DNA of 64,000 bases from Escherichia coli (GTDB taxonomy: Bacteria; Pseudomonadota; Gammaproteobacteria; Enterobacterales; Enterobacteriaceae), in the NCBI RefSeq assembly GCF_013315695.1, contig NZ_CP054353.1. The stretch is one strand, 5' to 3'. This document shows positions 20,755-47,593 of this stretch, piece by piece. Below the pieces are notes generated by a model. It did not search any database and was not told the origin of the DNA. It saw only the letters and a program-made list of their open reading frames with translations. The first letter of the stretch is position 1. The number at the start of each line of letters is the position of its first letter. The translations under genes and the position numbers were made by a program.

Positions 20755-21455
20755 CGCGGATCAAAGAATGGCACAGGAAAATATGAAAGATCATTTTGCA
20801 GATTGAGTTTCTGGACGACCAGACCAAGTTCACTGTTACGTCCAATATCAAGCCACAAGTTATTGCTGGTTGAGATTTCACAGCTATTCTGATAATGGCC
20901 AATTAATTCAAAACGCAAACGATTAAAATCCGAGAAATACAATGGGTTAAGCGTTATTTCCGCCAACGTTTTTTTTCCCAGTTGTTCTTTGGTAATCGGT
21001 AATACTCCCATCAACTCATCATTAAGATAAACTTTAAGCTGCGACTGAACGGGGATCAATGACGGTGACGGAGTATATTCAAGCTTTAGTTTTGCATCTG
21101 AAACTATCTCATCACTGCGCATACCAAATTCAATATACCCCAGTGGGTTGACACCATTCAAAACGATGTTACCAGGCGCTGGTGATATTTGTGTAAATGG
21201 AAGTTTAAAATGATAAGAGGAATCTTTCGCATAAACAGAGACGTTAGACTTCTCTATAGCGGGTAATACTATCCCGGAGGGAGACTTATGGATTATGGTA
21301 TCTAAAGCTGATGCAGCATTTGCCTGGTATAACCATAAAAACCCTAAGCAAATTATTGCAGTAATAAATTTTAAATATTTTCTTTCCATTTTAAAAATTT
21401 CAAGAGACATAATCAACACAAATAATATATTTAGTTGGTTAAATATAATCTAAAA

Positions 21456-23570
21456 CTAATTCTCACGACTATTTTTTAGTGTCCGCAGAATATAAAAAAT
21501 CATATTGTAATACCCTTTAAGAGAGATGATACATACGTCAAAAAAGCTCTTTAGTATATTATCTTGCTTAATTTTATCATTCCACTCTTGCCATAATGAA
21601 TCACGTGAAAATGTTACTCTGACATAATTAATATTCTGTTCATAAGTCATTGGCAAAATCTTCAGACCAATTTTATTTTTGTAAGCATGAACAACTTTTA
21701 CAGGAATATCACATTCCCCTTTATTATCACTCAGATAAAGAGACAAATGCTGAGTTTTTTCGATTTCTTTTACATCGGAGATGTGATCAACAATAACCCC
21801 CAGGCCACCTTCGGAGAAATCAATAACAGAACAGGGATAGCACCGTCCATCTGCTAGTTTTATCACACCTTTAAAAGAAACATCTATCCGAGGAGAAAAG
21901 CGGACCTGCTTTTGTTCAATAGAGACTGCCAGGGTTGCGCCAATAATAATTGTATTATAAATCAACCAAATCAAACAAAATAAATTTAATATAACAAGAT
22001 GACCTTGCAATCTATAAATATTAATAACACCTATTATTAGTCCAATTAAATTTAAAATAGCAAAAATAAGATAAGGATATGAGATTCGCCAGTCAACAAA
22101 TTTATTTTTTATTAACCCGCCCTTGGCAGTAACGTTAAATCGCCCTTTAGCTGGCGCAAGTAAGGCAACAAGCGTTGGTAGTGTAATATACCAGGCCAGA
22201 ACCATTTCATAAATTTCATTCCAAAATGAATGTCTGTATTCACCCTGAACTCTTGAGTTAGTAAAAATAATCACAAATAGATAAGGTAGAACATAAGACA
22301 TAATATCTGCAACCGACGCATCTATCAAATTAACTGAAAAGAAAATAGGACATAGTGGCGCGAATAAAAAAATCAGCCGTGGAACCCCTGATAAAAAATG
22401 CATCATGCTACTGAGATAGCAAAGACGCTGTGATAACGTCAGCCCTTTGCCCAATAATGGATTATCAATACGTAAGATTTGGATCATGCCCCTGGCCCAC
22501 CGTATTCGTTGTCCGATATGAGCAGACAATGTTTCGGTAGCAAGTCCAGCGGCCAGAGGATAGCGAAGATATGCGGAGCTGTACCCTGCACGATGCAAGC
22601 GTAGCGATGTATGCGCATCTTCCGTTACCGTTTCAACTGCAATGCCTCCAACCTCATCTAATGCAGACCTACGGATAACCGCGCATGAACCACAAAAAAA
22701 TGAAGCATTCCATGTATCGGTGCCATTCTGGATTAAACCATAAAAAAGATGTCCTTCATTTGGTTTCTGCCGAAATTGCCCCAAGTTTCGCTCAAAAGGA
22801 TCGGGAGAGAAAAAATGATGTGGTGTTTGCAGCATCGATAGTTTTTTATCGGCAATAAACCAGCCCATCGTTTTTTTTAAAAAAGAAACGGAAGGAATAT
22901 GATCACAATCGAAAATAGCAACAAATTCGCCGTTAGCTATTTTAAGCGCATTGTTTATATTTCCAGCTTTCGCATGTTCATGCGTTTCTCTTGCAACATA
23001 GCAAATACCTGACTCATCAGCAAATTTCCTGAATTCGTCTCTGGCACCATCATCAAGAAGCCAGACATGTAATTTATCTTTTGGCCAGTCTAAAGCCAGC
23101 GCTCCATAAACTGTATTCTTCACGACAGTAAAGGGTTCATTATATGTAGGTATGAATATATCGACATCAGGCCATTCTTCTTTATTATCTGGTAAAGGTA
23201 TGCTTTCCCTGTTCAATGGGAAACAGACCTGAAAATAACCAAGTAATAAAACAAACCATGCATACGTTTCAGCAGCTAACAGCGTCAATGAAAAGAAGCT
23301 GTCAGGAAACTCATCAAGAATAACTGAAGAAGAGTAACGCCACCATAGATACCTTGTGGATATAAGTATACCAATACCCATTAAGATCAGGGTAATCATC
23401 CTTCCCCTGAGCAAATTGAGGAGAAAAACAGAGATACAAATGATAATCGAGAATAGTGTTTGTTGATAAAAACCGAGCGGCTGTTCAACAATTGACAAAA
23501 AAACAAAACATAGCAATATAGCAACAAAAAGAAAAATTTTGTTGTATATTTCTTTATTTTTTAAATTCAT
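21456..23570 (-). CDS. BcsA-like processive family-2 glycosyltransferase with C-terminal PilZ domain
   Basis: 704-aa multi-pass membrane ORF with FDCDH and QRIRWARG (QxxRW) motifs and PilZ signatures RFSPR / DFSEGGLG; AT-rich (about 25-35 percent GC). Confidence 0.85.
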   Translation of the reverse strand: MNLKNKEIYNKIFLFVAILLCFVFLSIVEQPLGFYQQTLFSIIICISVFLLNLLRGRMITLILMGIGILISTRYLWWRYSSSVILDEFPDSFFSLTLLAAETYAWFVLLLGYFQVCFPLNRESIPLPDNKEEWPDVDIFIPTYNEPFTVVKNTVYGALALDWPKDKLHVWLLDDGARDEFRKFADESGICYVARETHEHAKAGNINNALKIANGEFVAIFDCDHIPSVSFLKKTMGWFIADKKLSMLQTPHHFFSPDPFERNLGQFRQKPNEGHLFYGLIQNGTDTWNASFFCGSCAVIRRSALDEVGGIAVETVTEDAHTSLRLHRAGYSSAYLRYPLAAGLATETLSAHIGQRIRWARGMIQILRIDNPLLGKGLTLSQRLCYLSSMMHFLSGVPRLIFLFAPLCPIFFSVNLIDASVADIMSYVLPYLFVIIFTNSRVQGEYRHSFWNEIYEMVLAWYITLPTLVALLAPAKGRFNVTAKGGLIKNKFVDWRISYPYLIFAILNLIGLIIGVINIYRLQGHLVILNLFCLIWLIYNTIIIGATLAVSIEQKQVRFSPRIDVSFKGVIKLADGRCYPCSVIDFSEGGLGVIVDHISDVKEIEKTQHLSLYLSDNKGECDIPVKVVHAYKNKIGLKILPMTYEQNINYVRVTFSRDSLWQEWNDKIKQDNILKSFFDVCIISLKGYYNMIFYILRTLKNSREN

Positions 23571-23643
23571 GGTACGTAACTATTCATTAATACTATGATT
23601 TGACTTTAAAAAAACGAATGAATGATGTCATAAAAATAAAATT

Positions 23644-24984
23644 TTAACACCAGGTTACCTGTGCTCTTCCATTTTGCTTACTTTTGTATAATCGTTCATC
23701 TGCCAGTAATTTCAACCGTTCAATGTTATTCATGCACTCGTCAGTATTGGCAACACCAATACTGCAACTACAATTCAATCCACCTATTGAGAAATGGACT
23801 ATTCTGTGCAAAATTCTTGATAATTGATTTATATCTTTATCATGATAAATAATAGCGAACTCATCGCCACCAAATCGATAAACTTCACCTTTGCTGAGGG
23901 GTAATTCATCCTTAATAAGATTAACAAGTCTTATTAGTACTTCATCACCAAATAAATGACCAAACTTGTCATTAATGGTTTTAAACTTATCTACATCAAA
24001 CAGGCATAAATATCCAAAATCCTTACTCAGCATCCTGATATTTTTATCAAAAACACGACACCCAGAAGCTCGCGTCAATGCATCGTAAGTCCCGGAATCA
24101 TATATTTCTCTAATTGCATCAATCTCTTCAACGTTAAAGAATAGATTTTTTCCATGCAAATTATAATGATTATTCGATAATATAGATTCTTTTTCTGACT
24201 TACCCTTATTTATGATTTTTTGCATTAATTTAATGTAATGAAAATATATTAACCCCGCAGAAATCGCCGATGTGAAAACAAAAAACAAGCACATATAAAT
24301 ATACTTATCTTTTTTATAGGCAACAATAAACATTACTTCCGGGATATAAGAATAAGCAAGAGTGATCGCTGATTTCTCAAATACAGCATCATTAATCAAA
24401 AAATCATCACCCGCGATTTTCTTTTCATTATCATTGATATCATAAAATGAGACATATATATTTTCCCGTTCACCTGACTGATTTCTTATCAAAGCCAAAT
24501 AACGTTCAGGATCTACCACTGATATCAAACTTGTTCGTTTCGAAATAGGATGAGCATAATAAATATAATATTTATTATTTAAACTAATAATCCCTCTTTC
24601 AAAGATGTTACTTATACGGATAGAAGAAACTATGCCGTCACAAAAGTTATCCCCTTCCGTTGTAACTTTGGCGCATTTACCATCGCTAATGATATAGGGA
24701 CCTAGATCATAAATATATTCTGGTTTTTGAAAGTCAGCAAAACTATTGCGTATCCTTTTTAACAACTCTTCCGGAGAAATATCTAACCCATAAAATACAT
24801 TATTAAATACTAAGCGCCGATACTCAGACACATTAGCTATAGCAAGCCCACTATCTATGATCGATACCTTTACCGAATTGACTCGATCTTTAACGTAAAT
24901 AGTATACAGATAACATGTCATTACAGAGACACATAAAAAATACAAAAAACAGATCCCTGCTGCCTTTTTTTTATACTTAAACAT
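23644..24984 (-). CDS. membrane-anchored diguanylate cyclase (GGDEF)
   Basis: 446-aa ORF with two TM segments flanking a periplasmic domain and an intact RFGGDEF active site. Confidence 0.85.
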   Translation of the reverse strand: MFKYKKKAAGICFLYFLCVSVMTCYLYTIYVKDRVNSVKVSIIDSGLAIANVSEYRRLVFNNVFYGLDISPEELLKRIRNSFADFQKPEYIYDLGPYIISDGKCAKVTTEGDNFCDGIVSSIRISNIFERGIISLNNKYYIYYAHPISKRTSLISVVDPERYLALIRNQSGERENIYVSFYDINDNEKKIAGDDFLINDAVFEKSAITLAYSYIPEVMFIVAYKKDKYIYMCLFFVFTSAISAGLIYFHYIKLMQKIINKGKSEKESILSNNHYNLHGKNLFFNVEEIDAIREIYDSGTYDALTRASGCRVFDKNIRMLSKDFGYLCLFDVDKFKTINDKFGHLFGDEVLIRLVNLIKDELPLSKGEVYRFGGDEFAIIYHDKDINQLSRILHRIVHFSIGGLNCSCSIGVANTDECMNNIERLKLLADERLYKSKQNGRAQVTWC

Positions 24985-24988
24985 TGTG

Positions 24989-27337
24989 TTATTTTCTTTT
25001 TTTCGGTTTACTGTCTATATGCCACTCTGAAAACGGTAATGGTTTCTGGTATAAATATCCCTGAACATGGGAGAAGCCTAATTTTTGTAATTCTCTGGCC
25101 TGTCTTTCTGTTTCAACACCTTCAGCGATCACTGGCATATTTTCTTCTCGTGCAAGACTAGATATAAAACACACAACCCTGTTAGTTTCATCGAAAATAC
25201 CAGAAGTAAATTCTGAATCAATTTTGATGCTATCAGGTCTAACTTTGTATAATTTTTTCAAGTCAGCTAACCCACTGCCAAAATCATCAAGGGAAATTTT
25301 AATGCCATTTCTTCTTAAAAATTTTATATTATTATAAAAACTATCATTTATATCTTTCATTGCTGACTCGGTGATCTCCAGACAGATTTGTTCCGTATTT
25401 ACGCCAAATTTATTAATTAAATTCAAAACGCGGGTATGGAAATCAAATTCATTTAACTGCCAAGGTGAAACATTGATATGCAGAAGAAATTCTTTCGTAA
25501 TTTCATACTCACGACTAAATGAACCAAATTCACCAATAGCCGTTTCAAGAACAAAATCACCCAGTTCTTTAATTAAGCCAATTTCTTCAGCAACAGGCAC
25601 GAAAACTGATGGTGGTATTGCACCATTTTCAACGGACAACCAGCGGCATAACGCTTCGGCGCCAACAACATTATTACTATCCATATCAACAATCGGTTGA
25701 TATACTAAATAAAACTCACTACTCACAATTGCTTTTTTTATATTTCCAGCAACCCAAACCTTTTGATCAAGTTCATGAGCCTTAATATCATCATAAAATA
25801 TAAATTCAGATTCTTTATTTTCTCGCATAGCTGTTAATGCCAGTTTCAGTTTACCTTCATAAATCGACAAACTTTCCCCTGAAAAAGTTTCACAAATAGC
25901 AACCTTATGAACATAAATATTTCTTATGCAAAAAATATGCTCAGGAAAGTTTAAAACAGATAATCGTTCTATGAACTCTTCACAATGAGTGTGACACAGC
26001 AACAAATATGTTTCAGTAGAAATTTTTATAATATCACAATATTTAGAATACTTTGCTGATATCTTTGATTTTATATCATTAATGATCTCATAAAATTTCT
26101 GACTGCCATGTATAGCCTCTACAAACTCTAATCCATAGATACAAAGCATACCAACTGCTGAATAGGTTTTATTATTAGTTTCAATGACAGATTTGTTGAT
26201 ATAGAAACAACTTCCTTGTTCATAGGAAACAAGATTAAGTAACCGTTCCATCCGCTCTTTGTATTTGTCACTAATGTTATTAATGATTTTTTTGAGCTCA
26301 ATAATCTCACTACTGTCATTTTGCACGATTTCGATTTTATCATTTCGGTATACTGAGCTCGCTAATTTTTTCAGATGCTCAATTAGTTTACCAGAGTCGT
26401 TTCTAACCTTTTTTGTTATCTTTTCAAAAAGGTACCATAATAAACAGAAACAAACCAAACCACATACAAACATCAGTGTAAAATATTTATTTATGTTTGT
26501 GTCTTCTGCTTTTTGATAATGAAAATAATGAAATTTGACATCAGGAAGCCTGGGGAGTGAAATAATATCGTCCGTATAATTACCGTTATTATTACTTATG
26601 TTATAACGTCCAGATGCATCTCTAACAATAAGATGTAACATTGATTGTTCATTACCTACCATAATCCTTTTATTCTGTTCCATAAATAAAATATCTGCAT
26701 TTCCTCCTAATTTGTCCAGGAAATTGCTAAAATATCTTTCATCAAGATCTAAATGAATTAACTTCAGAGCAAATGAATCTTTTTCTGCTTCGGCTGGTCG
26801 TAATGAAAACGAAAAACATTTTTTCCCGGCAATGCCATAGCAGTTATACCATGGTGACCATTTTGAATAAGTCCCTGTTGGTAATTTATTCCAGGGACGG
26901 GATTCAGGATCAAAGTAGTTATCGTTAATTTCACCATCAGGGCTAGTAAAAGCATGACCTGGCTCTGATTGCCCCAAAAATTTAACATCACCATTATCAG
27001 TTCGAATAAAGCTAAGATACTTTCCATTATTTAGCATTATTCCGACTAAATTAACAGAATCTATCTTTTTCATCCGATGAAGAACTGCGCGTTTTATTTC
27101 ATTTTCATCGTGTAACAGATAAATGGCATCTTTTAAAGCATCCGCCTCTTTTTCAACTTTAGAAAAAAAGTTATTCAAATTATTATTGATAAGTATAAGA
27201 TTAATGCGTGAAGAGTTTTCTGCTATTTTTTTATAAAAATCAATGGCTGTAATAAATGATAAAATAATATAGACAGTGACAGCGAATATAAGCGCAGTGT
27301 TAAATCTTGAGTTTAATTTTTCTGTGATGCTATACAT
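24989..27337 (-). CDS. membrane-anchored c-di-GMP phosphodiesterase (EAL)
   Basis: 782-aa ORF with two TM segments and periplasmic domain; EAL signatures GAEALCRW, LDDFGSG, AEGVE; first gene of the operon, stop 4 bp before the GGDEF start. Confidence 0.85.
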   Translation of the reverse strand: MYSITEKLNSRFNTALIFAVTVYIILSFITAIDFYKKIAENSSRINLILINNNLNNFFSKVEKEADALKDAIYLLHDENEIKRAVLHRMKKIDSVNLVGIMLNNGKYLSFIRTDNGDVKFLGQSEPGHAFTSPDGEINDNYFDPESRPWNKLPTGTYSKWSPWYNCYGIAGKKCFSFSLRPAEAEKDSFALKLIHLDLDERYFSNFLDKLGGNADILFMEQNKRIMVGNEQSMLHLIVRDASGRYNISNNNGNYTDDIISLPRLPDVKFHYFHYQKAEDTNINKYFTLMFVCGLVCFCLLWYLFEKITKKVRNDSGKLIEHLKKLASSVYRNDKIEIVQNDSSEIIELKKIINNISDKYKERMERLLNLVSYEQGSCFYINKSVIETNNKTYSAVGMLCIYGLEFVEAIHGSQKFYEIINDIKSKISAKYSKYCDIIKISTETYLLLCHTHCEEFIERLSVLNFPEHIFCIRNIYVHKVAICETFSGESLSIYEGKLKLALTAMRENKESEFIFYDDIKAHELDQKVWVAGNIKKAIVSSEFYLVYQPIVDMDSNNVVGAEALCRWLSVENGAIPPSVFVPVAEEIGLIKELGDFVLETAIGEFGSFSREYEITKEFLLHINVSPWQLNEFDFHTRVLNLINKFGVNTEQICLEITESAMKDINDSFYNNIKFLRRNGIKISLDDFGSGLADLKKLYKVRPDSIKIDSEFTSGIFDETNRVVCFISSLAREENMPVIAEGVETERQARELQKLGFSHVQGYLYQKPLPFSEWHIDSKPKKRK

Positions 27338-28436
27338 ACTGGTGTTCTGACTAAAATGTTATCAATAATTTCGATATTACATTATATAAAGTTCGGTATA
27401 TGAAATGGTATTAATACTCCTCTTTATGATTTTCTGAATTAAATGATCTCCATTCTGTAAATATATCATAATGAGAAGATTGATTTTCTCTTAATTTACC
27501 AAAGTTATTATCATGCTTATTACTTTAACCAGAATGACATTATCATATATAGCGTTTATACTTTTGCATCTTCCACCCACGCTACCGCCTTTCGTTAATT
27601 TATCAACGAAATAATTTAGATATGAAAAAATCAATATATGACGCCTAAGCTATCACATTATGCATAGTTGCGACATTCACCTCTTTAATTATCCCAAAGA
27701 GGTATTAATGTGAATTCTCTATCATCCATTTTGCTGATTTATCTTTTTTCAGTCATGAGCAATCCGACTCTCTTAGCCAAAATAAATTAATAACCTTAAA
27801 ATGAGGTTTAATCAGAAAGTAGTAGCCACAGCTTGACTATTAAGACTATAAATTAGCCATAACGATGGACAGATAAATATGTTAATGAATACATGTTCAA
27901 TAAAACAATAAGGCACAACGCCAGGCCACCATTTTATTTTAAAAATAAAAGGCTGTGAACTATGCCAGGTATAATCTGATTCTATCGAGAGAGAATTTTT
28001 GTAAGTTACAAATACTGCAAAAGACACATTACACAAAATTTTTAACCACACAAACACCTTGTGTTCTGTATAACAGAACAATAGCTGTGGTCATTTTCAG
28101 CAAGTTTAACTAAAATTATCAAGAATTTTTTTTGATGTATATCAAAAACAATAGTCTTCGCGCATCCGTTACTGCTTAACATTTACCCACAAAGTTCATA
28201 TTTTCACCACACATAATCGTTCACTTCAGAACTTAAAATAATAACTTGCAAAATAACCAATAATTAAAACTATCACTGCATCTAAAAATAAAGATTAAGA
28301 TAACTAAAATTCGTATTATCACGGCATCGTTTATCGCCACCCGTCTCTTAAGAAAAATTTAACTTTGCTATTATCAGTCCTCTCCGAATTTCTCTTCTAT
28401 TTACTGCGATAACCCCGGCGAACCGGGGCATGATGA
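27338..28436 (-). promoter_or_regulatory. 1.1-kb AT-rich noncoding leader/promoter region upstream of the EAL-GGDEF-bcsA-like operon
   Basis: No convincing ORF; strongly AT-rich; sits at the 5' end of a minus-strand operon. Confidence 0.4.
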
Positions 28437-36128: not shown

Positions 36129-36427
36129 AATGGCTCACTCAAGCTTGCTCACGATTGATTCCAGTAACAAACCGTATTGTGTAATTATTTCTATAGCAGG
36201 TCGCTATATAGGATTGTATATATCGAATAATTTGAAAATCAAAGAGATAGGTAGATTTTCACTCGAAAGTAGTATTACGTGTAAGTGAGGAGTAATTATT
36301 GTTCGGTATCAAAGGGAGACAAAAAAAGCGCCCGCAGGAGATTTAACACACCTTACTCCCCTTGATGATTTACTTATTTTTCAATGACTAAATCAAAACA
36401 AGGGGAGCAAATTAACGCAAATTACAA
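36129..36427. promoter_or_regulatory. dmsA upstream region containing the presumed prophage attachment junction
   Basis: AT-rich 300-bp spacer between dmsA start and the 3' end of the phage integrase; segment AAAAAAAGCGCCCGCAGGAGATTT at about 36321-36344 partly resembles a P2-type att core as I recall it. Confidence 0.3.
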
Positions 36428-40333: not shown

Positions 40334-40588
40334 TTGTCTTTTTTCAGGAGTCAACAAATGAGAACAGCCGAATCACCCGGCAGAAAAATAACCGCCAGAC
40401 CAGCTAACCATCATGCACATATCAGCATTGCCGCAAGAAAAGCCGAGCGTGCGCATATCTGCGAATTGCTGCATGACCTGGTTAACACAGCGAGAGAGAA
40501 GCACACCTCCCCGGAGGAAACCTGTTCATCCATTGAACGACTGATTGCAATACTCGCCAACCCAGACGAACTGAAGGGGTGCGCATAA
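40334..40588 (+). CDS. hypothetical early protein
   Basis: 84-aa ORF, stop overlaps the exonuclease start. Confidence 0.35.
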   Translation: MSFFRSQQMRTAESPGRKITARPANHHAHISIAARKAERAHICELLHDLVNTAREKHTSPEETCSSIERLIAILANPDELKGCA

Positions 40589-41169
40589 TGAACCATCTCA
40601 TGATTGACACCGAAACACTGGGTAACGGACCGGACGCAGCCATATTCACGATTGGGGCGGTGTTTTTCGACCCGTTCACCGGAAAGCTGGGCAAGCAGTT
40701 TGAGAAATTCATCGACCCGGTGGATTCAGAACGCAACGGCGGAACCGTCAATGCAGCCACCGCTGTATGGTGGGCCGGACAATCCGTGGAAGCCAGAGCC
40801 TGCCTGCGCAACGCAGATGGAACAGAGCTGGCAGCAGTGACCGAATTTCTGGCGTTCATTTCACGCAATATGCATGACGAAAGCCCGGGCAATTCACTGA
40901 ACATATGGTGTAAGGGCGCATCCTTCGATTTCCCGATCCTGAAATCCGCCATAACACGCACAGCCGGAGAAAAAAGCATCCCCTGGTGCTACTGGAACGA
41001 GCGCTGTATGCGCCCGCTTATCGCCATGGCTGAATCAACTGGATGGAAAATGCCAGGCAGATCAGGCAAAGAGACCATTGCTCACACCGCGCTGGGCGAC
41101 GCCGTTTACCAGGCAAAGGTCGTGTCAGAAATCTGGCAGCGCTTCACAACACCATTCCTGAACATATGA
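40579..41169 (+). CDS. DnaQ-like 3'-5' exonuclease
   Basis: 196 aa, Exo I motif MIDTETLG near N-terminus and later HTALGDAV. Confidence 0.7.
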   Translation: MRIMNHLMIDTETLGNGPDAAIFTIGAVFFDPFTGKLGKQFEKFIDPVDSERNGGTVNAATAVWWAGQSVEARACLRNADGTELAAVTEFLAFISRNMHDESPGNSLNIWCKGASFDFPILKSAITRTAGEKSIPWCYWNERCMRPLIAMAESTGWKMPGRSGKETIAHTALGDAVYQAKVVSEIWQRFTTPFLNI

Positions 41170-41402
41170 GGTGAAGCCATGGTCGCCATCCTGAATGTGT
41201 GTTGCTGCCCCCCCCTGAACGTGGAAAGAAAAGCCCGCGCATCGCTGCGTTTATTCCGCGACGGCGTGCGGAATTTTTCACGCATAAAACCCCACGACTA
41301 CCTGGTAATAAGAATCGGTTTTCGCTGGCGATTGCTGAGCAAAAACAACGGGGCGTCATGGGATTTATTAACGCACGAAACCTATAACAAAGAGGCCGCG
41401 TT

Positions 41403-42347
41403 ATGAGCAAAGAACTGTTATCCGGCACGCCGCTTAAATGGGTGGGCGGAAAAAGTCGCATCATGAACACACTGAAGGCGCATCTGCCAGAAGCAGACTG
41501 CCTGGTTGAGCCGTTTGTGGGTGGCGCATCGGTATTCATGAACACCAGTTACAAGCGTTACATCCTGGGTGATTCCAATGGTGCGCTGATTAATTTCTAC
41601 CGGCAAGCCAGGGACAACACCGACAGCCTGATCGACGAGGCGAAAACCCTGTTCCTGAACCACAACAACAGGGGTGACTATCTCATCATTCGCGAAACCT
41701 TTAACGCAGAGAATCATGCCTTCCTGAACAGCAGAACGGGAATAAGCGACCGCCGTGAACTGCGACTGGCCGCCATGTTTTTGTACCTGAACCGACACAG
41801 CTTTAACGGTTTGTTCCGCGTGAACGGAAAAGGCGATTTTAACGTGCCTTTCGGCTGCTACCGCAAGCCCTACTTCCCTGAGCGTGAAATCCGCGCATTT
41901 GCAGACAAGGCAAACAGCACCCGAACGCTGCTTATCCACGCAGATTTTAAGGATACGCTGAACTCTGCCAGTCACCTGTTCGGCATGGGCAACACGCTTT
42001 GCGTGTACTGCGATCCCCCTTACCTGCAATTCAGTGGCCGGGACAATTTTACCGCCTACGGAAAACCATTCGATGAAGACGAGCACGTTCGTCTGAGGGC
42101 AGCGCTCGACCGCCTTTCACAGGAAACGGGCGGCATGACCAGCATCACCATCTCCAATTCCGACACACCGGAAACACGACGCATTTATCGGGGTTACCGG
42201 ATGAACTGCATACAGGCACCACGAAGCGTTGGCGCAAGAACCCGGGAATCAGCACCGGAGGTTATCGCCACCCTGAGATGCATCACATCCGCCTTATCAA
42301 CGGTTCGCACTTCTGCGCCACGAACATGGAAGAAGTACGCGTGCTGA
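41403..42347 (+). CDS. dam: DNA N6-adenine methyltransferase (Dam-like)
   Basis: 314 aa with CDPPY catalytic motif and FVGGASVF SAM-binding region. Confidence 0.85.
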   Translation: MSKELLSGTPLKWVGGKSRIMNTLKAHLPEADCLVEPFVGGASVFMNTSYKRYILGDSNGALINFYRQARDNTDSLIDEAKTLFLNHNNRGDYLIIRETFNAENHAFLNSRTGISDRRELRLAAMFLYLNRHSFNGLFRVNGKGDFNVPFGCYRKPYFPEREIRAFADKANSTRTLLIHADFKDTLNSASHLFGMGNTLCVYCDPPYLQFSGRDNFTAYGKPFDEDEHVRLRAALDRLSQETGGMTSITISNSDTPETRRIYRGYRMNCIQAPRSVGARTRESAPEVIATLRCITSALSTVRTSAPRTWKKYAC

Positions 42348-42375
42348 CAGCAACACGCAATACGGGAGGTAAAGC

Positions 42376-42726
42376 ATGGCAGTGATTTATATCGCCGGTC
42401 CCATGACCGGATGCAAAGACCACAACAGGACGGCATTTTGCGTGGAGGACCTGAAACTTCGGTGCGCCGGAAACATCGTTCTTAATCCTGCCGTACTGCC
42501 TGACGGATTAAGCCAGCAGCAGTACATGAGTATTTGTATTCCGATGCTCATGTGCGCCGATGCCATTTACTTACTGGATGGATGGGAAGAGTCCGCTGGC
42601 GCACGGGCTGAGTACGCAATGGCGCTCAAACTGAACATGCATGTGTCATTCCCGGAAAACCGGGCAGCCGGCGAAACCGTCGCGCAGCTGCTTCACAAAT
42701 CAAAAGCCGCACAGGCGACTGAGTAA
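42376..42726 (+). CDS. nucleoside 2-deoxyribosyltransferase-like / DUF4406-like small protein
   Basis: 116 aa starting MAVIYIAGPMTG (Rossmann-like YxAGP motif). Confidence 0.45.
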   Translation: MAVIYIAGPMTGCKDHNRTAFCVEDLKLRCAGNIVLNPAVLPDGLSQQQYMSICIPMLMCADAIYLLDGWEESAGARAEYAMALKLNMHVSFPENRAAGETVAQLLHKSKAAQATE

Positions 42727-43164
42727 CCGACCGGAGATCGAAACATGATTGCGCGCAGAGCTACCAACCGTCTCACAGGCTTTATTCCAGGCAAGGTTGA
42801 TCATGCACTCCATCACGGGGCTGTCACTTTCCTCAACAAAGGAGAGGCGCGCAATCATGCATTCCGGGGTGAGCATGTGGCGCTGGCTAATCAGTCTTTG
42901 ATAGCTAAGCGCCTGCCATTCAGCCTTTTCAGCTCTGATAGAAAGAGAGGAAGCCATGACCTGCCACACCAGAAAGAGCACCACACTGGCGAAAACAAAC
43001 GTTGCGCTGTCGCAAAAAATGAATGCGGCAACAATCGCAAGGAAAGCGCTAATCCTCAGAACCAAGGAAGCGCGACGGTGGAGAAGGCTTGTCATGTGTT
43101 CAAGCCAGTAGCTGTACCACAGGTCAAAAAGAATTTCGTAATCAGAAGGGAGCTTATCACTCAT
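42700..43164 (-). CDS. hypothetical membrane protein, convergent with the dam module
   Basis: About 154 aa from MSDKLPSDYEILFDLWYSYW with two hydrophobic helices; start lies 16 bp from the left edge of the tandem repeat. Confidence 0.4.
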   Translation of the reverse strand: MSDKLPSDYEILFDLWYSYWLEHMTSLLHRRASLVLRISAFLAIVAAFIFCDSATFVFASVVLFLVWQVMASSLSIRAEKAEWQALSYQRLISQRHMLTPECMIARLSFVEESDSPVMECMINLAWNKACETVGSSARNHVSISGRLLSRLCGF

Positions 43165-43547
43165 CAGAAACACCCCGCGTATGCAGACAATCACCAGTTG
43201 CCAGGTGATATTAATTCGCAACATTCTAACCACATCAGCACGCAACACAAAAACCGCTTGCCAGCGCTCGTCGTGTCAGGTTACATTTCCGCTGCACCTC
43301 ATAAAACGGGTGCCGGGTTTCGCAGCCTGCTGACAACCAAAGCGCACAACCGCGCCAGCGGTTTTTTTGTGCGTACTGTATTGCCACGTCTTTTTCGCGT
43401 CAGAATTATGGCGGGGCGTACGGGGCCGACTTCGGTCGGGCCGGGTTCTTTGCTAGCCGGTACTGCGAACCTCGTACGTCTCGCCACCCACAGTTTCGCA
43501 GCTCTGGATGGTGAGTTTTCACAACTTACTAGCAAAGAGGCCACACC

Positions 43548-43769
43548 ATGGCAAACCGCAAGCAACAGCGCGCCCGCGCTGAGCGTCTTCACATCCGCAG
43601 CGAAATCAACCGCAGACTTTTCCGCGCAACACGCGTCGCGCAAATCATGCATATCAACATGCTGCATGAGCGCACGCACGCACTATCAAACCGTTACTGC
43701 GCTGCTGTCTTCAGCTATCTCGCCGAAGATCTGGCAGAACTGCAAAGCCTCATCAACCAGCACCGATAA
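43548..43769 (+). CDS. small basic protein (73 aa), copy 1
   Basis: MANRKQQRARAERLHIRSEINRRLFRATRVAQ..., AAAGAGG Shine-Dalgarno; identical copy at 44377-44598. Confidence 0.45.
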   Translation: MANRKQQRARAERLHIRSEINRRLFRATRVAQIMHINMLHERTHALSNRYCAAVFSYLAEDLAELQSLINQHR

Positions 43770-43837
43770 ACCACATCCGGAAGCTATCCCACACCTGCAC
43801 GCGGGAGGCTTCCGCACGTCTGTTACCGGAGGTTCTC

Positions 43838-44008
43838 ATGAAGAGCGTTAAGGGACTTTCAGATATTCAGGACTTCTTTAACTGGATGTGGGCGGTGGAT
43901 CCCCTGCTGGCTTCCCGCCTGAACAACTGGCACGACTATTACCGCCGCGCCTGTAAACAGGCTGCCCGCAGCGTCACCACATACGGGGCTTTCTCCTTCA
44001 CCGTTGAC
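43838..44008 (+). pseudogene. 5'-truncated duplicate of the 138-aa pre-A gene
   Basis: First 57 codons match 44667-44837, then the frame runs into repeat unit 2. Confidence 0.5.
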
Positions 44009-44837
44009 TATGCAGACAATCACCAGTTGCCAGGTGATATTAATTCGCAACATTCTAACCACATCAGCACGCAACACAAAAACCGCTTGCCAGCGCTCGT
44101 CGTGTCGGGTTACATTTCCGCTGCACCTCATAAAACGGGTGCCGGGTTTCGCAGCCTGCCGACTAGCAAAGCGCACAACCGCGCCAGCGGTTTTTTTGTG
44201 CGTACTGTATTGCCACGTCTTTTTCGCGTCAGAATTATGGCGGGGCGTACGGGGCCGACTTCGGTCGGGCCGGGTTCTTTGCTAGCCGGTACTGCGAACC
44301 TCGTACGTCTCGCCACCCACAGTTTCGCAGCTCTGGATGGTGAGTTTTCACAACTTACTAGCAAAGAGGCCACACCATGGCAAACCGCAAGCAACAGCGC
44401 GCCCGCGCTGAGCGTCTTCACATCCGCAGCGAAATCAACCGCAGACTTTTCCGCGCAACACGCGTCGCGCAAATCATGCATATCAACATGCTGCATGAGC
44501 GCACGCACGCACTATCAAACCGTTACTGCGCTGCTGTCTTCAGCTATCTCGCCGAAGATCTGGCAGAACTGCAAAGCCTCATCAACCAGCACCGATAAAC
44601 CACATCCGGAAGCTATCCCACACCTGCACGCGGGAGGCTTCCGCACGTCTGTTACCGGAGGTTCTCATGAAGAGCGTTAAGGGACTTTCAGATATTCAGG
44701 ACTTCTTTAACTGGATGTGGGCGGTGGATCCCCTGCTGGCTTCCCGCCTGAACAACTGGCACGACTATTACCGCCGCGCCTGTAAACAGGCTGCCCGCAG
44801 CGTCACCACATACGGGGATTTCTCCTTCACCGTGGAC
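44009..44837 (+). repeat. tandem duplication, unit 2 (829 bp)
   Basis: See unit 1. Confidence 0.85.
44377..44598 (+). CDS. small basic protein (73 aa), copy 2
   Basis: Identical translation to 43548-43769. Confidence 0.45.
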   Translation: MANRKQQRARAERLHIRSEINRRLFRATRVAQIMHINMLHERTHALSNRYCAAVFSYLAEDLAELQSLINQHR

Positions 44838-45083
44838 GGTCGTTACCGCGTGGACGTGAAAGGTGATGGTGATGGACTGGGTTTATTTCACATCAACGGC
44901 ACCGACAGTACCGCCATCAGCTGGTCGTCATCAGAGATGGCGCTGGTTCTGGAAATGACAACCCACAGCGTGGCCGTGAAAGGTATATACACCGCAGAAG
45001 GTTTTATCGGCGAATACCAGCGCCTTCTCGTGCTGTACCGCGCGGCGTTTCAGGTGGCAACTGCCGGGGAGTGCGACGCATGA
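44667..45083 (+). CDS. hypothetical protein immediately upstream of gene A
   Basis: 138 aa, GGAGG Shine-Dalgarno, stop overlaps the A start. Confidence 0.5.
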   Translation: MKSVKGLSDIQDFFNWMWAVDPLLASRLNNWHDYYRRACKQAARSVTTYGDFSFTVDGRYRVDVKGDGDGLGLFHINGTDSTAISWSSSEMALVLEMTTHSVAVKGIYTAEGFIGEYQRLLVLYRAAFQVATAGECDA

Positions 45084-47593
45084 GCGACCATAACGCACAA
45101 CTGGCGTACCCGTGGAACGCCCCGCTACCGGTTATCGATCCTGAAACGTTCGGCAGAGCACAGCCAACCGCATTACGCCAGGCCATTCAGAGCTACATCA
45201 ACGAGGACATTCGCATTGATGCCAGACTGGATGAAGAAACCGTCGCCTTTCTGACAACCACAGACGAAGGGAAGCGAATTAATTCGCACCTTCACCACAA
45301 CGAAGAGCGTCGGATCAGACTGGAAAAACTGGCGCGGCACAAACGCGAGAATCCGCCCACGGTGGTATCGGAAGCCATGGCAGAACTTCGCGCCCTGCCC
45401 TCGTTTCTTGGCAACGCGCTCATTCGTGATCTGGCGCGTTTAAACCGCAAACAGCAAAGCGCCCGCCATGAAGGCGTGAAAAACAACAATACACACGTGG
45501 CTGATAACTTTGTTCGCCGTGGACTGCGCACACGCCTGAAACGCATCGAACAGGTGAATGAATGCTTCGCCACGACGGCATTCAAAGCCACCGCAGCACG
45601 CCATCGCCTTGATGAATTACTCATGCTGCCACAACTCAACCGTGATCAAATTCAGCGCCTTGCCACACTAACGGCGGCGGCATTTTCCACCGAACTGGAA
45701 CGCATATGTGATGAAGTTACTGAGCGGACAGGAAAAGGCGACGATAACCTGTTTACCTGGTTGCTGACTTACCAGCAGCTGGCGCGCATGGCAATAAAAC
45801 TGGGCGTGAACCCACCATACTGGCCGTCACTCGAGATCAGACGTGACCGCCGCACGGCACCAGACCCTGAACTGGTACCGGGCGCGGTAATGCGTATCAC
45901 CTGCGCCACCTGGTGGAACAACCAGCTGCGCCACCTCGCTGATCTCTGGCGGGAGGAATTACTGCGTGCCGCCGGAAGAGTATCGCGCAAGGCATCCCCC
46001 TACATCAGCCATGAGTCACTCCAGGAATTCCGGGAGAAACGCCAGCGCACCCGTGATTTTCTCAAAAGCTGGGACATTGAAAACGAAGACGGTGAACGCC
46101 TGAGCCTGGAGGACGTGTACTGGTCAGGGCTGGGGAATCCGCGCAACCGCCGCAACGAGATGATGGCCTGCGTCAGAGGGATGGAACAGGTCGCCGAATC
46201 GCGTGGTGACTCCGCGTTCTTCGTGACAGTGACCTGCCCTTCCCGCTTTCACAGCGTAAACGAGGACGGCAGCCTGAACCCGAAATACAACGGTGCCACC
46301 GTGCGCGATGCCAGTGATTATCTGGTTTACGACGTCTTTGCAGCTGCAAGAAAAAAACTCAACAAAGAAGGCCTGAGCTGGTACGGGGTGCGCACCGTTG
46401 AGCCACACCATGACGGCACACCGCACTGGCACATGCTGGTATTCACCGCCCCGGACAATGAAGAACGCATCATTGAAATCATGCGTGACGCAGCAATCAA
46501 ATCAGATCGCGCAGAACTGGGGAATGATATTTCTCCGCGCTTCAAGTGCGAAAAAATCGACCCGGCAAAAGGCACACCGGCAAGCTACATCGCAACCTAT
46601 ATTGGCAAGAACCTGGACGCCAGCACCTTTCACGACAATGACCCGAAAACCGGCAAACCTTACGCCGATAAAGAATCGGGAAAAACCATGGCGGAAACCG
46701 TGGAAAACGCCATTGCCTGGGCGAGTCTCCACCGCATCCGGCAGTTCCAGTTCTTCGGTATCCCGCCCCGCCAGGTATGGCGTGAACTCCGCCGCCTTGC
46801 CGGACAAATGGAGCGTAACCCCGCATCACCGAAGCGCCTGGACCATGACGACATTGACGCCATTCTGGCCGCCGCTGACGTGGGGTGTTTTGCCACCTAC
46901 ATCAACCGTCAGGGCGGCGTGCTCATTCCACGCAACCTGTACCTGATCCGCACCGCATACGAAACCGCAGATGAGGCCAACGACTACGGCGAATTCCCGC
47001 AGCGCATCTACGGAATTTGTGCCCCGTCGCTCGGCGAGCGCTACACCATCTGCACCCATCCGGACGAGTGGAAACTGGTCAGAAAAGAAGCGAAAGCCGA
47101 CAACAGCACGGACGAGGATTTTGACGTTGGGGGCGGCTTCGCCGCACCTTGGACTCGTGGCAATAACTGTCGCCATGATGAAAAAACAGACACCGAAGAG
47201 GGTAAAAACCCACCACCGGAAACCAGGAAAGAACAAAAACTGGTCGTCCCGGAAGGTGATTTGGGCGAGTGGTTAAGGTCACTGACCCCCACAGAGCGAA
47301 AACAACTCACCAGGCAGCTGAAAGATGCGCCATCTGACACAAAAACCGTGAAAACCGGCGGCCCCACCACGCCCGATGACGTCATACATGTGCGTACCGC
47401 ATTGCCGCTGGCTGACGTCACCACCACCGTGATCAAGTCGGCACTGAGCACGACGGGCGAGGAGCTGCACAGTGGCGCGGCACTTTCCGTACACAGAGGT
47501 GCACGCGTTCGCCTGCCTGACGGGCGGATTGTGCACTGGGATGAGAAATCACGAAGCCTGGTGGCAGCAGATCAACCGGAGGTGAACCCATGA
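45071..47593 (+). CDS. P2 gpA-like rolling-circle replication initiator
   Basis: 840 aa with HUH-type motif HHDGTPHWHMLVF. Confidence 0.9.
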   Translation: MRRMSDHNAQLAYPWNAPLPVIDPETFGRAQPTALRQAIQSYINEDIRIDARLDEETVAFLTTTDEGKRINSHLHHNEERRIRLEKLARHKRENPPTVVSEAMAELRALPSFLGNALIRDLARLNRKQQSARHEGVKNNNTHVADNFVRRGLRTRLKRIEQVNECFATTAFKATAARHRLDELLMLPQLNRDQIQRLATLTAAAFSTELERICDEVTERTGKGDDNLFTWLLTYQQLARMAIKLGVNPPYWPSLEIRRDRRTAPDPELVPGAVMRITCATWWNNQLRHLADLWREELLRAAGRVSRKASPYISHESLQEFREKRQRTRDFLKSWDIENEDGERLSLEDVYWSGLGNPRNRRNEMMACVRGMEQVAESRGDSAFFVTVTCPSRFHSVNEDGSLNPKYNGATVRDASDYLVYDVFAAARKKLNKEGLSWYGVRTVEPHHDGTPHWHMLVFTAPDNEERIIEIMRDAAIKSDRAELGNDISPRFKCEKIDPAKGTPASYIATYIGKNLDASTFHDNDPKTGKPYADKESGKTMAETVENAIAWASLHRIRQFQFFGIPPRQVWRELRRLAGQMERNPASPKRLDHDDIDAILAAADVGCFATYINRQGGVLIPRNLYLIRTAYETADEANDYGEFPQRIYGICAPSLGERYTICTHPDEWKLVRKEAKADNSTDEDFDVGGGFAAPWTRGNNCRHDEKTDTEEGKNPPPETRKEQKLVVPEGDLGEWLRSLTPTERKQLTRQLKDAPSDTKTVKTGGPTTPDDVIHVRTALPLADVTTTVIKSALSTTGEELHSGAALSVHRGARVRLPDGRIVHWDEKSRSLVAADQPEVNP

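Follow-up and report, generated by a model that had tools for sequence, protein, structure and literature searches.

Prophages related to 186 and P2 can carry an orphan DNA adenine methylase (Dam) ahead of the replication endonuclease gene gpA, as in Fels-2 (STM2730) and in the case of the 'retron Ec67 DNA adenine methylase'. P2-like phages also harbor a defence hotspot between gpA and gpQ, downstream of gpA and next to cos (Rousset et al. 2022, PMC9122126), and SLATT, a further point of comparison, is the effector in the DRT10 defence system (bioRxiv 10.64898/2026.04.29.721553). Here, we analyzed a gene block that touches on all three within a 64,000-nucleotide stretch of Escherichia coli DNA (contig NZ_CP054353.1, RefSeq assembly GCF_013315695.1), hereafter referred to as the window. 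The window contains a P2/186-type (Peduoviridae) E. coli prophage, with an integrase and a helix-turn-helix (HTH) repressor upstream and a gpA-type replication endonuclease at 45071-47593 (+). Between 40.35 and 43.17 kb, five plus-strand genes follow one another almost without gaps and are met by one convergent minus-strand gene. We read this block as accessory DNA of variable content within the rightward early operon, assembled from independently exchangeable single-gene modules rather than forming one multi-component system, and we assign this reading a probability of roughly 0.6.

The array begins with a gene for a small protein of 76 amino acids (aa) counted from its ATG (40358..40588, +; phrog_22206, 1.5e-52), whose stop codon overlaps the ATG of the gene for an Rv2179c-like DEDDh 3′-5′ exonuclease (40588..41169, +; 193 aa from ATG; PF16473, phrog_255). 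After a gap of 9 nt comes a gene for a ParE-like small protein of 75 aa (41179..41406, +; Pfam ParE_like PF24732, phrog_1525), and its stop overlaps by 4 nt, as ATGA, the start of the gene for an orphan Dam-family N6-adenine DNA methyltransferase (41403..42347, +; 314 aa, TIGR00571, DPPY motif). The fifth gene follows at a distance of 28 nt, with a strong ribosome-binding site in between, and encodes a 116-aa DUF4406 protein, a putative N-glycosidase or transferase by its predicted fold (42376..42726, +; PF14359, phrog_355). On the opposite strand, a gene for a 154-aa two-transmembrane protein that is SLATT-like in its predicted fold (42700..43164, −; phrog_6315) overlaps the DUF4406 gene by 27 nt at its own 3′ end. 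A first-pass annotation of this DNA had named the exonuclease, Dam, the 116-aa protein and the convergent 154-aa protein, and all four are present there. It overlooked the 76-aa and ParE-like genes of the same array, and it began the exonuclease at a GTG at 40579; RefSeq relatives use the ATG at 40588, which is probably the start. Its placement of the block directly before gene A did not hold, as ~1.9 kb lie in between, occupied by a duplicated isrK/C4-RNA/derepression module and a phrog_3237 gene. The exonuclease, ParE-like protein, Dam and DUF4406 protein are already named by standard RefSeq annotation, and each component is a known gene type. Counts of substitutions at codon positions 1/2/3 against the diverged relative L008 (Dam 9/9/33; DUF4406 2/2/10; membrane gene 24/14/45) indicate that Dam, DUF4406 and the membrane gene are real genes under coding constraint.

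Comparison with the described systems showed both likeness and difference. Like the orphan Dam genes of 186/P2-like prophages, the window Dam is a TIGR00571 methylase upstream of the replication endonuclease and has no restriction partner. However, the Fels-2 Dam abuts gpA and is not accompanied by DUF4406, whereas the window Dam is preceded by the exonuclease and ParE-like genes and followed by DUF4406, with the SLATT-like gene and the C4/derepression module standing before gpA. The block shares with the gpA-gpQ hotspot the character of a small, high-turnover P2-like locus between conserved genes, and the turnover of SLATT-like alleles is comparable. Unlike the hotspot, it lies upstream of gpA inside the early operon, and, the SLATT-like gene aside, it encodes accessory enzymes of the lytic cycle and not defence systems expressed in lysogens.

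The distribution of the block carries our reading. The block was found in 30 of 5,426 complete E. coli genomes, whereas a query extended into the flanking module matched 1,277 of the same 5,426. On the strength of this difference, we regard the block as cargo, as the first-pass annotation had proposed, and reject the alternative that it is universally conserved P2 backbone. None of 50,697 phage records contained a match to the block at ≥85% identity. Its homology in variant genomes begins, on the left, at ~40354, and its composition differs among relatives. Strain Bongo (L091) carries the exonuclease and Dam without the ParE-like, DUF4406 or SLATT-like genes, the H191/H192 genomes carry the exonuclease alone, and in L002 two extra small, unrelated genes stand between Dam and DUF4406. 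A second P2-like lineage shows the order ParE-like, two unrelated genes, Dam and DUF4406, with an HTH protein replacing the membrane gene. Arrangements in other Peduoviridae include exonuclease and Dam before gpA in 3LV2017 (where a ParE-like open reading frame (ORF) probably lies within the annotated methylase coding sequence, as read from the coordinates), Dam-ParE-Dcm-gpA in SW5, exonuclease-ParE-gpA in ESSI2_ev239 and the plain Dam-gpA order of Fels-2.

We then compared the surroundings of DUF4406 at 85 loci, comprising 80 viral contigs (the best 80 of at least 596 matches, all enterobacterial) and five GenBank/RefSeq loci; the locus search used a 17-sequence subset of the DUF4406 alignment. 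Any Dam-family match within 8 kb was present at 17 of the 85 loci. Dam lay upstream of DUF4406 at 13 of them, all P2-like, and was directly adjacent in 10. A DnaB helicase gene stood immediately upstream at 26 loci, and most of the others had another replication or nin-region gene in that position. Approximately 65 of the 80 viral contigs were lambdoid, with DUF4406 following DnaB or other replication genes and with no Dam-family gene within 8 kb. Distant DUF4406 members adjoin Prim-Pol, AAA_25 and RusA genes. These upstream-gene counts indicate that the constant partner of DUF4406 is the replication module and not the methylase.

The methylase itself was assigned with a wide margin by TIGR00571 (226 bits against a cut-off of 115), and its translation contains CDPPYL. 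The model for the E. coli host Dam (NF008152) scored 218 bits against a cut-off of 441, so the prophage enzyme is not a host-type orthologue. Its top PADLOC model was 'orphan methyltransferase' (8.7e-76), and restriction-endonuclease PADLOC models matched none of the neighboring genes scanned. By homology, Dam is the sole predicted DNA-modifying enzyme of the block, and no NCBIfam match was obtained among the block proteins apart from Dam.

The 116-aa protein matched Pfam DUF4406 with an E-value of 1.4e-32 over model positions 2-90 of 91 and phrog_355, labeled 'nucleoside 2-deoxyribosyltransferase', at 2.6e-38. In an 85-sequence alignment, it agrees with the family at every invariant or near-invariant column (YIAGPMTG, NR-AF, LNPA-LP-GL, YM-I and GW-x-S-x-GA-x-x-E). 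An AlphaFold model built on that alignment reached a predicted local distance difference test (pLDDT) score of 95 and a predicted template modelling (pTM) score of 0.87. Foldseek against the PDB returned 2a0k as the best match (E 1.3e-4, template modelling (TM) score 0.63), followed by MilB and DNPH1. The matches to 2a0k, 6qai, 8pq*, 4jel/4jem and DNPH1 (8qhr and 4p5e) had TM scores of 0.57-0.64 at probability 1.0, and the top solved structures belong to one superfamily, which includes trypanosomal and cyanobacterial nucleoside 2-deoxyribosyltransferases (NDTs), the CMP N-glycosidases MilB and BcmB, and human DNPH1. A profile alignment to the Trypanosoma brucei enzyme 2a0k, the only solved structure that the alignment profile retrieved by sequence (E 0.0016), pairs E79 with the glutamate in 'GTAFE' and Y5 with the tyrosine in 'YIAGP'. 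We take the glutamate of 'GTAFE' to be the catalytic nucleophile of NDT-type enzymes. E79 is conserved in at least 90% of the aligned DUF4406 sequences, and the CtNDT residues that PDB titles list as mutated (E88, Y7 and D62) are at comparable positions. A PDB sequence search with the 116-aa protein alone gave nothing relevant. Modelling thus showed a predicted NDT/DNPH1/MilB fold and catalytic core for the DUF4406 protein, in line with the nucleoside-processing fold that the first-pass annotation had suspected.

Within this superfamily, DUF4406 resembles NDT, DNPH1 (Rcl) and MilB-BcmB in its fold, its N-terminal Y-I-A-G-P strand-loop and the aligned Glu. However, it constitutes a separate Pfam family of shorter proteins (116 aa here against 130-160), has Ser73 where 2a0k has an Asp six residues before the Glu, and carries its own invariant motifs (NR-AF, LNPA-LP-GL and GW-x-S). 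The family is large, with 7,732 representative clusters at 50% identity and members in 443 of the 50,697 phage records (~0.9%). No activity was reported for any DUF4406 member in the literature searched, where the term 'DUF4406' appeared only in unrelated papers, and searches for PF14359, phrog_355, DUF1937 and PF24732 found no literature. The family is phage-centered and unstudied, and its substrate, if found, would fill a gap in phage nucleotide metabolism. Existing names for actinophage members are inconsistent ('deoxycytidylate deaminase', 'MazG-like pyrophosphatase', 'hydrolase' and 'nucleoside deoxyribosyltransferase'); Arthrobacter phage Cote gp55 (L163) and Mycobacterium phage Optimus gp161 (L164), for example, are single-domain DUF4406 homologues. 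We rejected the 'dCMP deaminase' and 'MazG' labels as signs of domain fusion, as the homologues are single-domain and the names guessed. A comparison of 47 longer homologues with Pfam gave DUF7768, DUF551, HTH and one ClpX zinc finger as fusion partners, which were uninformative and probably reflect miscalled ORFs.

The convergent gene encodes a phrog_6315 protein (1.3e-65) with one hydrophobic hairpin at about residues 33-75. Its AlphaFold model, built on a seven-sequence alignment (pLDDT 86), is all-helical, with a hairpin of two long helices followed by three short C-terminal helices. A search of AFDB50 with this model yielded 67 matches at E ≤ 1e-3. The majority of the 50 best were labeled 'SMODS and SLOG-associating 2TM effector domain', SLATT or DUF4231, with TM scores of 0.7-0.85 over the whole length; the matches include a 32%-identical Salmonella protein annotated as SLATT and a 'Fels-2 prophage protein'. 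Foldseek against the PDB gave generic helical hairpins only (E > 0.2). The Pfam and NCBIfam SLATT models did not match the window protein, and SLATT_4 and SLATT_1 appeared below threshold in two relatives only (E ~0.015; 15 bits against cut-offs of 41-55). Weak Pfam matches pointed to DUF6239 (E 0.005) and DUF6136, and no PADLOC model matched. The domain search proposed earlier for this protein therefore gave nothing firm by sequence, and predicted structure points to a SLATT-like architecture with an N-terminal helix, a two-transmembrane hairpin and C-terminal helices. At ~150 aa, the protein shares this predicted layout with the SLATT effectors of DRT10/UG17 RT-SLATT systems and with those associated with CBASS or SLOG. 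Unlike them, it is solo, with no reverse transcriptase, cyclase, SMODS or SLOG operon partner, its only Rossmann-like neighbor (DUF4406) being convergent, and it runs antisense within a phage early operon.

The SLATT-like gene was present in 66 viral contigs and lay on the strand opposite gpA in all 50 that held both. DUF4406 was found within 6 kb of it in 13 of the 66 and was missing from that range in the other 53, and conversely a profile search found the SLATT-like gene at only 9 of the 85 DUF4406 loci. Its DNA identity to L008 was 80.6%, against 94-96% for the flanking genes. In other strains, this site is taken by alleles with an identity of just 35-40% (L092, at 35%, and L100-L105). The rapid divergence of the alleles suggests diversifying selection or cassette exchange. 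Homologues are also found elsewhere in the early region, in antisense, in Fels-2 (L086, NC_010463; 4995-5453) and Yersinia phage vB_YenM_42.18 (L087; 4995-5465), and the ORFs deposited on the opposite strand there (STM2733.1 and vBYenM4218_008) are probably mis-annotations. The first-pass annotation was right that a membrane gene converges on the block, but not in treating it as a mere closing element; it is an independent, fast-evolving gene, mostly found without DUF4406, and shows the pattern expected of an exclusion or abortive-infection function. A solo SLATT-like effector, missed by annotation, appears to run antisense in the early region of many P2-like phages. Its rapid allele turnover relative to the flanking genes suggests that Peduoviridae have, in addition to the gpA-gpQ hotspot, another place of conflict between phages that has so far gone undescribed.

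Candidate transcription signals fit a separate SLATT-like module. A consensus scan identified a terminator-like hairpin with a T-run at 42705..42720 (−), at the end of the SLATT-like gene and inside the 3′ end of DUF4406. A weak candidate promoter, read by eye at 43223..43250 (−), consists of TTGTGT, a 16-nt spacer and TAGAAT; it agrees with 8 of 12 consensus positions and falls below the scan threshold. The same scan found no plus-strand terminator-like site between 42726 and 43348. Since the stretch from DUF4406 to the isrK terminator lacks such a site, transcription of the early operon probably continues through the SLATT-like gene in antisense.

Under the accessory-segment reading, the five forward genes would probably be co-transcribed with the replication genes after induction or infection, as their orientation, their overlapping stops and starts and the absence of plus-strand terminators suggest. 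The exonuclease would trim nucleic-acid 3′ ends, and the ParE-fold small protein and the 76-aa protein would be further members of the co-transcribed array. The orphan Dam would place N6-methyladenine (m6A) on replicating phage DNA, with the payoff probably lying in self-protection from methylation-sensitive restriction and in full methylation when host Dam is outpaced. The DUF4406 protein most likely works on the replication-time pool, cleaving off the base of a nucleoside or nucleotide or swapping it for another, a role suggested by its fold, its conserved residues and its constant position by replication genes in unrelated phages. The SLATT-like gene would form a separate module, served by a weak promoter and a terminator of its own. 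Lysogens would probably express it as a membrane effector of exclusion or abortive infection, and convergent early transcription may damp it when the prophage goes lytic.

Several points weigh against this reading. The adjacency of Dam and DUF4406 is kept across two P2-like lineages at a DUF4406 identity of only 63-64%, the two genes share an ATGA start/stop overlap in L010, and in Aeromonas phage 4_D05, as in four lambdoid contigs (cluster C23), DUF4406 is directly preceded by an unrelated adenine methylase. Some residual functional tie of DUF4406 to DNA methylation may therefore exist. The enterobacterial contigs are a biased sample whose counts carry no correction for phylogeny, and the Dam counts come from a single-sequence search that is blind to other methylase families. 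The SLATT assignment compares predicted with predicted structures, its sequence models scoring below their cut-offs. Finally, the DUF4406 substrate, the Dam target sequence and the SLATT-like expression pattern are all inferred.

The first of these points also speak for the explanation that ranks next, which is close to what the first-pass annotation had proposed: the exonuclease, Dam and DUF4406 protein would constitute one DNA-modification or anti-restriction system, in which DUF4406 supplies or removes a base or nucleotide for a modification beyond m6A. The P2-like lineages that have both genes show Dam before DUF4406 (the 13 loci above, 10 of them adjacent), the overlap in L010 is translational, and the methylases preceding DUF4406 in 4_D05 and the four lambdoid contigs belong to other families. 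In addition, the NDT family PF05014, which has the same fold, has been proposed as a helper in a phage diaminopurine pathway (bioRxiv 10.1101/2025.10.22.683976), and in contig L036 DUF4406 is followed by an Rv2179c-like exonuclease. However, the obligate co-occurrence expected of a multi-gene hypermodification system was not seen. Roughly 65 of the 80 viral contigs carry DUF4406 without a Dam-family gene within 8 kb, the exonuclease and Dam occur together without DUF4406, the Fels-2 Dam stands alone before gpA, other combinations occur across Peduoviridae, and two unrelated genes can split Dam from DUF4406. Moreover, enzymes that would make or transfer a base are missing from the block, which contains neither PurZ nor DpdA and no glycosyl- or amino-transferase. 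The co-occurrence check suggested for the 116-aa protein and Dam likewise went against a joint system, with only 17 of the 85 loci positive, and we consider such a system unlikely.

A second explanation, also unlikely and placed after the joint system, views DUF4406 as a counter-defence enzyme or sponge that binds or hydrolyses a nucleotide-derived immune signal or its precursor, such as an ADP-ribose-derived molecule or a cyclic nucleotide, early in infection. Its small Rossmann-like nucleotide-binding fold, its location in early operons, its wide spread among unrelated phages (the 443 phage records and 7,732 clusters given above) and its presence in accessory regions shared with methylases and other host-takeover genes are compatible with such a role. 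Tad2 (DUF2493) is a small Rossmann-like phage protein that acts as a signal sponge, which adds to this side of the balance. However, we found no homology to known anti-defence families and no PADLOC match for DUF4406, the conserved catalytic Glu and Tyr argue for an enzyme acting on (deoxy)nucleosides or nucleotides rather than a sponge, and the constant neighbors are replication genes, not anti-defence islands.

The membrane gene gives rise to two further explanations. In the first, which we consider quite unlikely, a lysogen-expressed solo SLATT-like effector of abortive infection or exclusion would be disarmed at induction by the neighboring early genes, either through convergent transcription or because DUF4406 or the exonuclease destroys its nucleotide or nucleic-acid trigger. 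If true, DUF4406 would be the first of a new class of phage nucleotide-glycosidase immune modulators.

The second, which is very unlikely, couples DUF4406 and the SLATT-like protein in a two-gene conflict system of the SLOG/SLATT type, with the enzyme making or destroying a ligand that gates the effector. The name SLATT refers to an association with SLOG/SMODS nucleotide enzymes, and these enzymes are Rossmann-like and related to the deoxyribosyltransferase fold. In 11 P2-like viral contigs, DUF4406 and the SLATT-like gene stand end to end and their 3′ ends overlap, even where the SLATT-like alleles are only 35-40% identical, and lambdoid contigs L038 and L039 have a SLATT-like gene of 26% identity at 1.8 kb from DUF4406. 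Against this, DUF4406 is absent within 6 kb at 53 of 66 SLATT-like loci, and the SLATT-like gene occurs at only 9 of 85 DUF4406 loci by profile search. The genes are also convergent, with opposite regulatory logic (lytic operon versus antisense), and the SLATT-like gene lies elsewhere in the early region of Fels-2 and Yersinia 42.18.

Returning to the accessory segment, its remaining members are the 76-aa gene, the exonuclease and the ParE-like gene. The 76-aa gene is carried as a hypothetical coding sequence in annotated relatives. The exonuclease matched PF16473 over its full length (7.7e-51, model positions 1-177 of 177), phrog_255, labeled 'exonuclease' (7.8e-60), and the PADLOC DEDDh model (2.3e-5), and its translation contains an intact DEDDh set (D-x-E, D and H-x4-D) in 'IDTET', 'SFDFP' and 'HTALGD'. 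In both the full-length domain match and the intact motifs it is like other phage Rv2179c-like/DEDDh exonucleases of phrog_255; homologues occur in 1,525 of the 50,697 phage records, and the literature searched offered no functional role for them. In lambdoid contig L036 (7923-8892), DUF4406 is followed directly by an Rv2179c-like exonuclease (E 2e-8), in reversed order relative to the window.

The ParE-like protein matched PF24732 at 1.2e-17 (model positions 2-67 of 67) and phrog_1525 at 5.5e-27, and is called 'ParE family toxin-like protein' by RefSeq in relatives; no PADLOC model matched it. Its family appears in 60 phage records, with a methylase nearby in some and not in others. In other Peduoviridae the gene recurs ahead of Dam, Dcm or gpA, and it is also found in unrelated virulent phages. 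We rejected a functional pairing of ParE-like protein and methylase, as members of the family are also found in virulent phages where no methylase is annotated in the vicinity, as well as ahead of gpA in a methylase-free setting. The least probable explanation gives the ParE-like gene the role of toxin in an addiction or toxin-antitoxin module, paired with Dam or the exonuclease and stabilising the cargo. It draws on the Pfam match, the start/stop overlap with Dam and recurrence beside methylases in SW5, L121 and probably 3LV2017, but is opposed by this methylase-free occurrence, by the lack of an antitoxin-like small ORF next to the gene (its neighbors being the exonuclease and Dam), by a length of 75 aa, shorter than classical ParE toxins, and by its place in a lytic operon that is repressed in the lysogen, and we regard it as highly improbable.

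Outside the block, the interval up to gpA is filled largely by two tandem copies of an isrK/C4/derepression unit (43180..44837, +; repeat family D1, Rfam). The 829-bp unit is duplicated at 43180-44008 and 44009-44837, with three mismatch sites between the copies (43278, 43331-43337 and 43989). The plus strand carries isrK at 43294-43368 and 44123-44197 (Rfam 65.9 and 64.3 bits, gathering score 50), the C4 antisense RNA at 43404-43491 and 44233-44320 (82.8 bits, gathering score 45), and one gene per unit for a 73-aa derepression protein (43548-43769 and 44377-44598). The unit resembles the immI antirepressor control module of phage P1. Among relatives, it is present in one copy in L001 and in two in L002, strain G6/7. 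The duplication junction at ~44004-44009 truncates the first phrog_3237 copy and joins it to upstream sequence, which creates a chimeric 280-aa ORF (43838-44680); the intact phrog_3237 gene lies at 44667-45083 (+; 7.4e-52), followed by gpA, which is called 'replication endonuclease' in annotated relatives. A 368-aa ORF at 42745-43851 (+) overlaps the SLATT-like gene in antisense and extends over the isrK and C4 RNAs; we set it aside as probably spurious, its composition looking non-coding.

Relatives are inserted beside the pseudogenes yfaT and DUF2138. Two further features concern the wider window. An Rfam match to the enterobacterial small RNA STnc130 (36219-36353, +; 126 bits, gathering score 55) precedes the regulatory genes of the prophage. 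Away from the prophage early region, a long stretch at 21000-28000 has a low G+C content of 0.29-0.40, compared with ~0.5 elsewhere.

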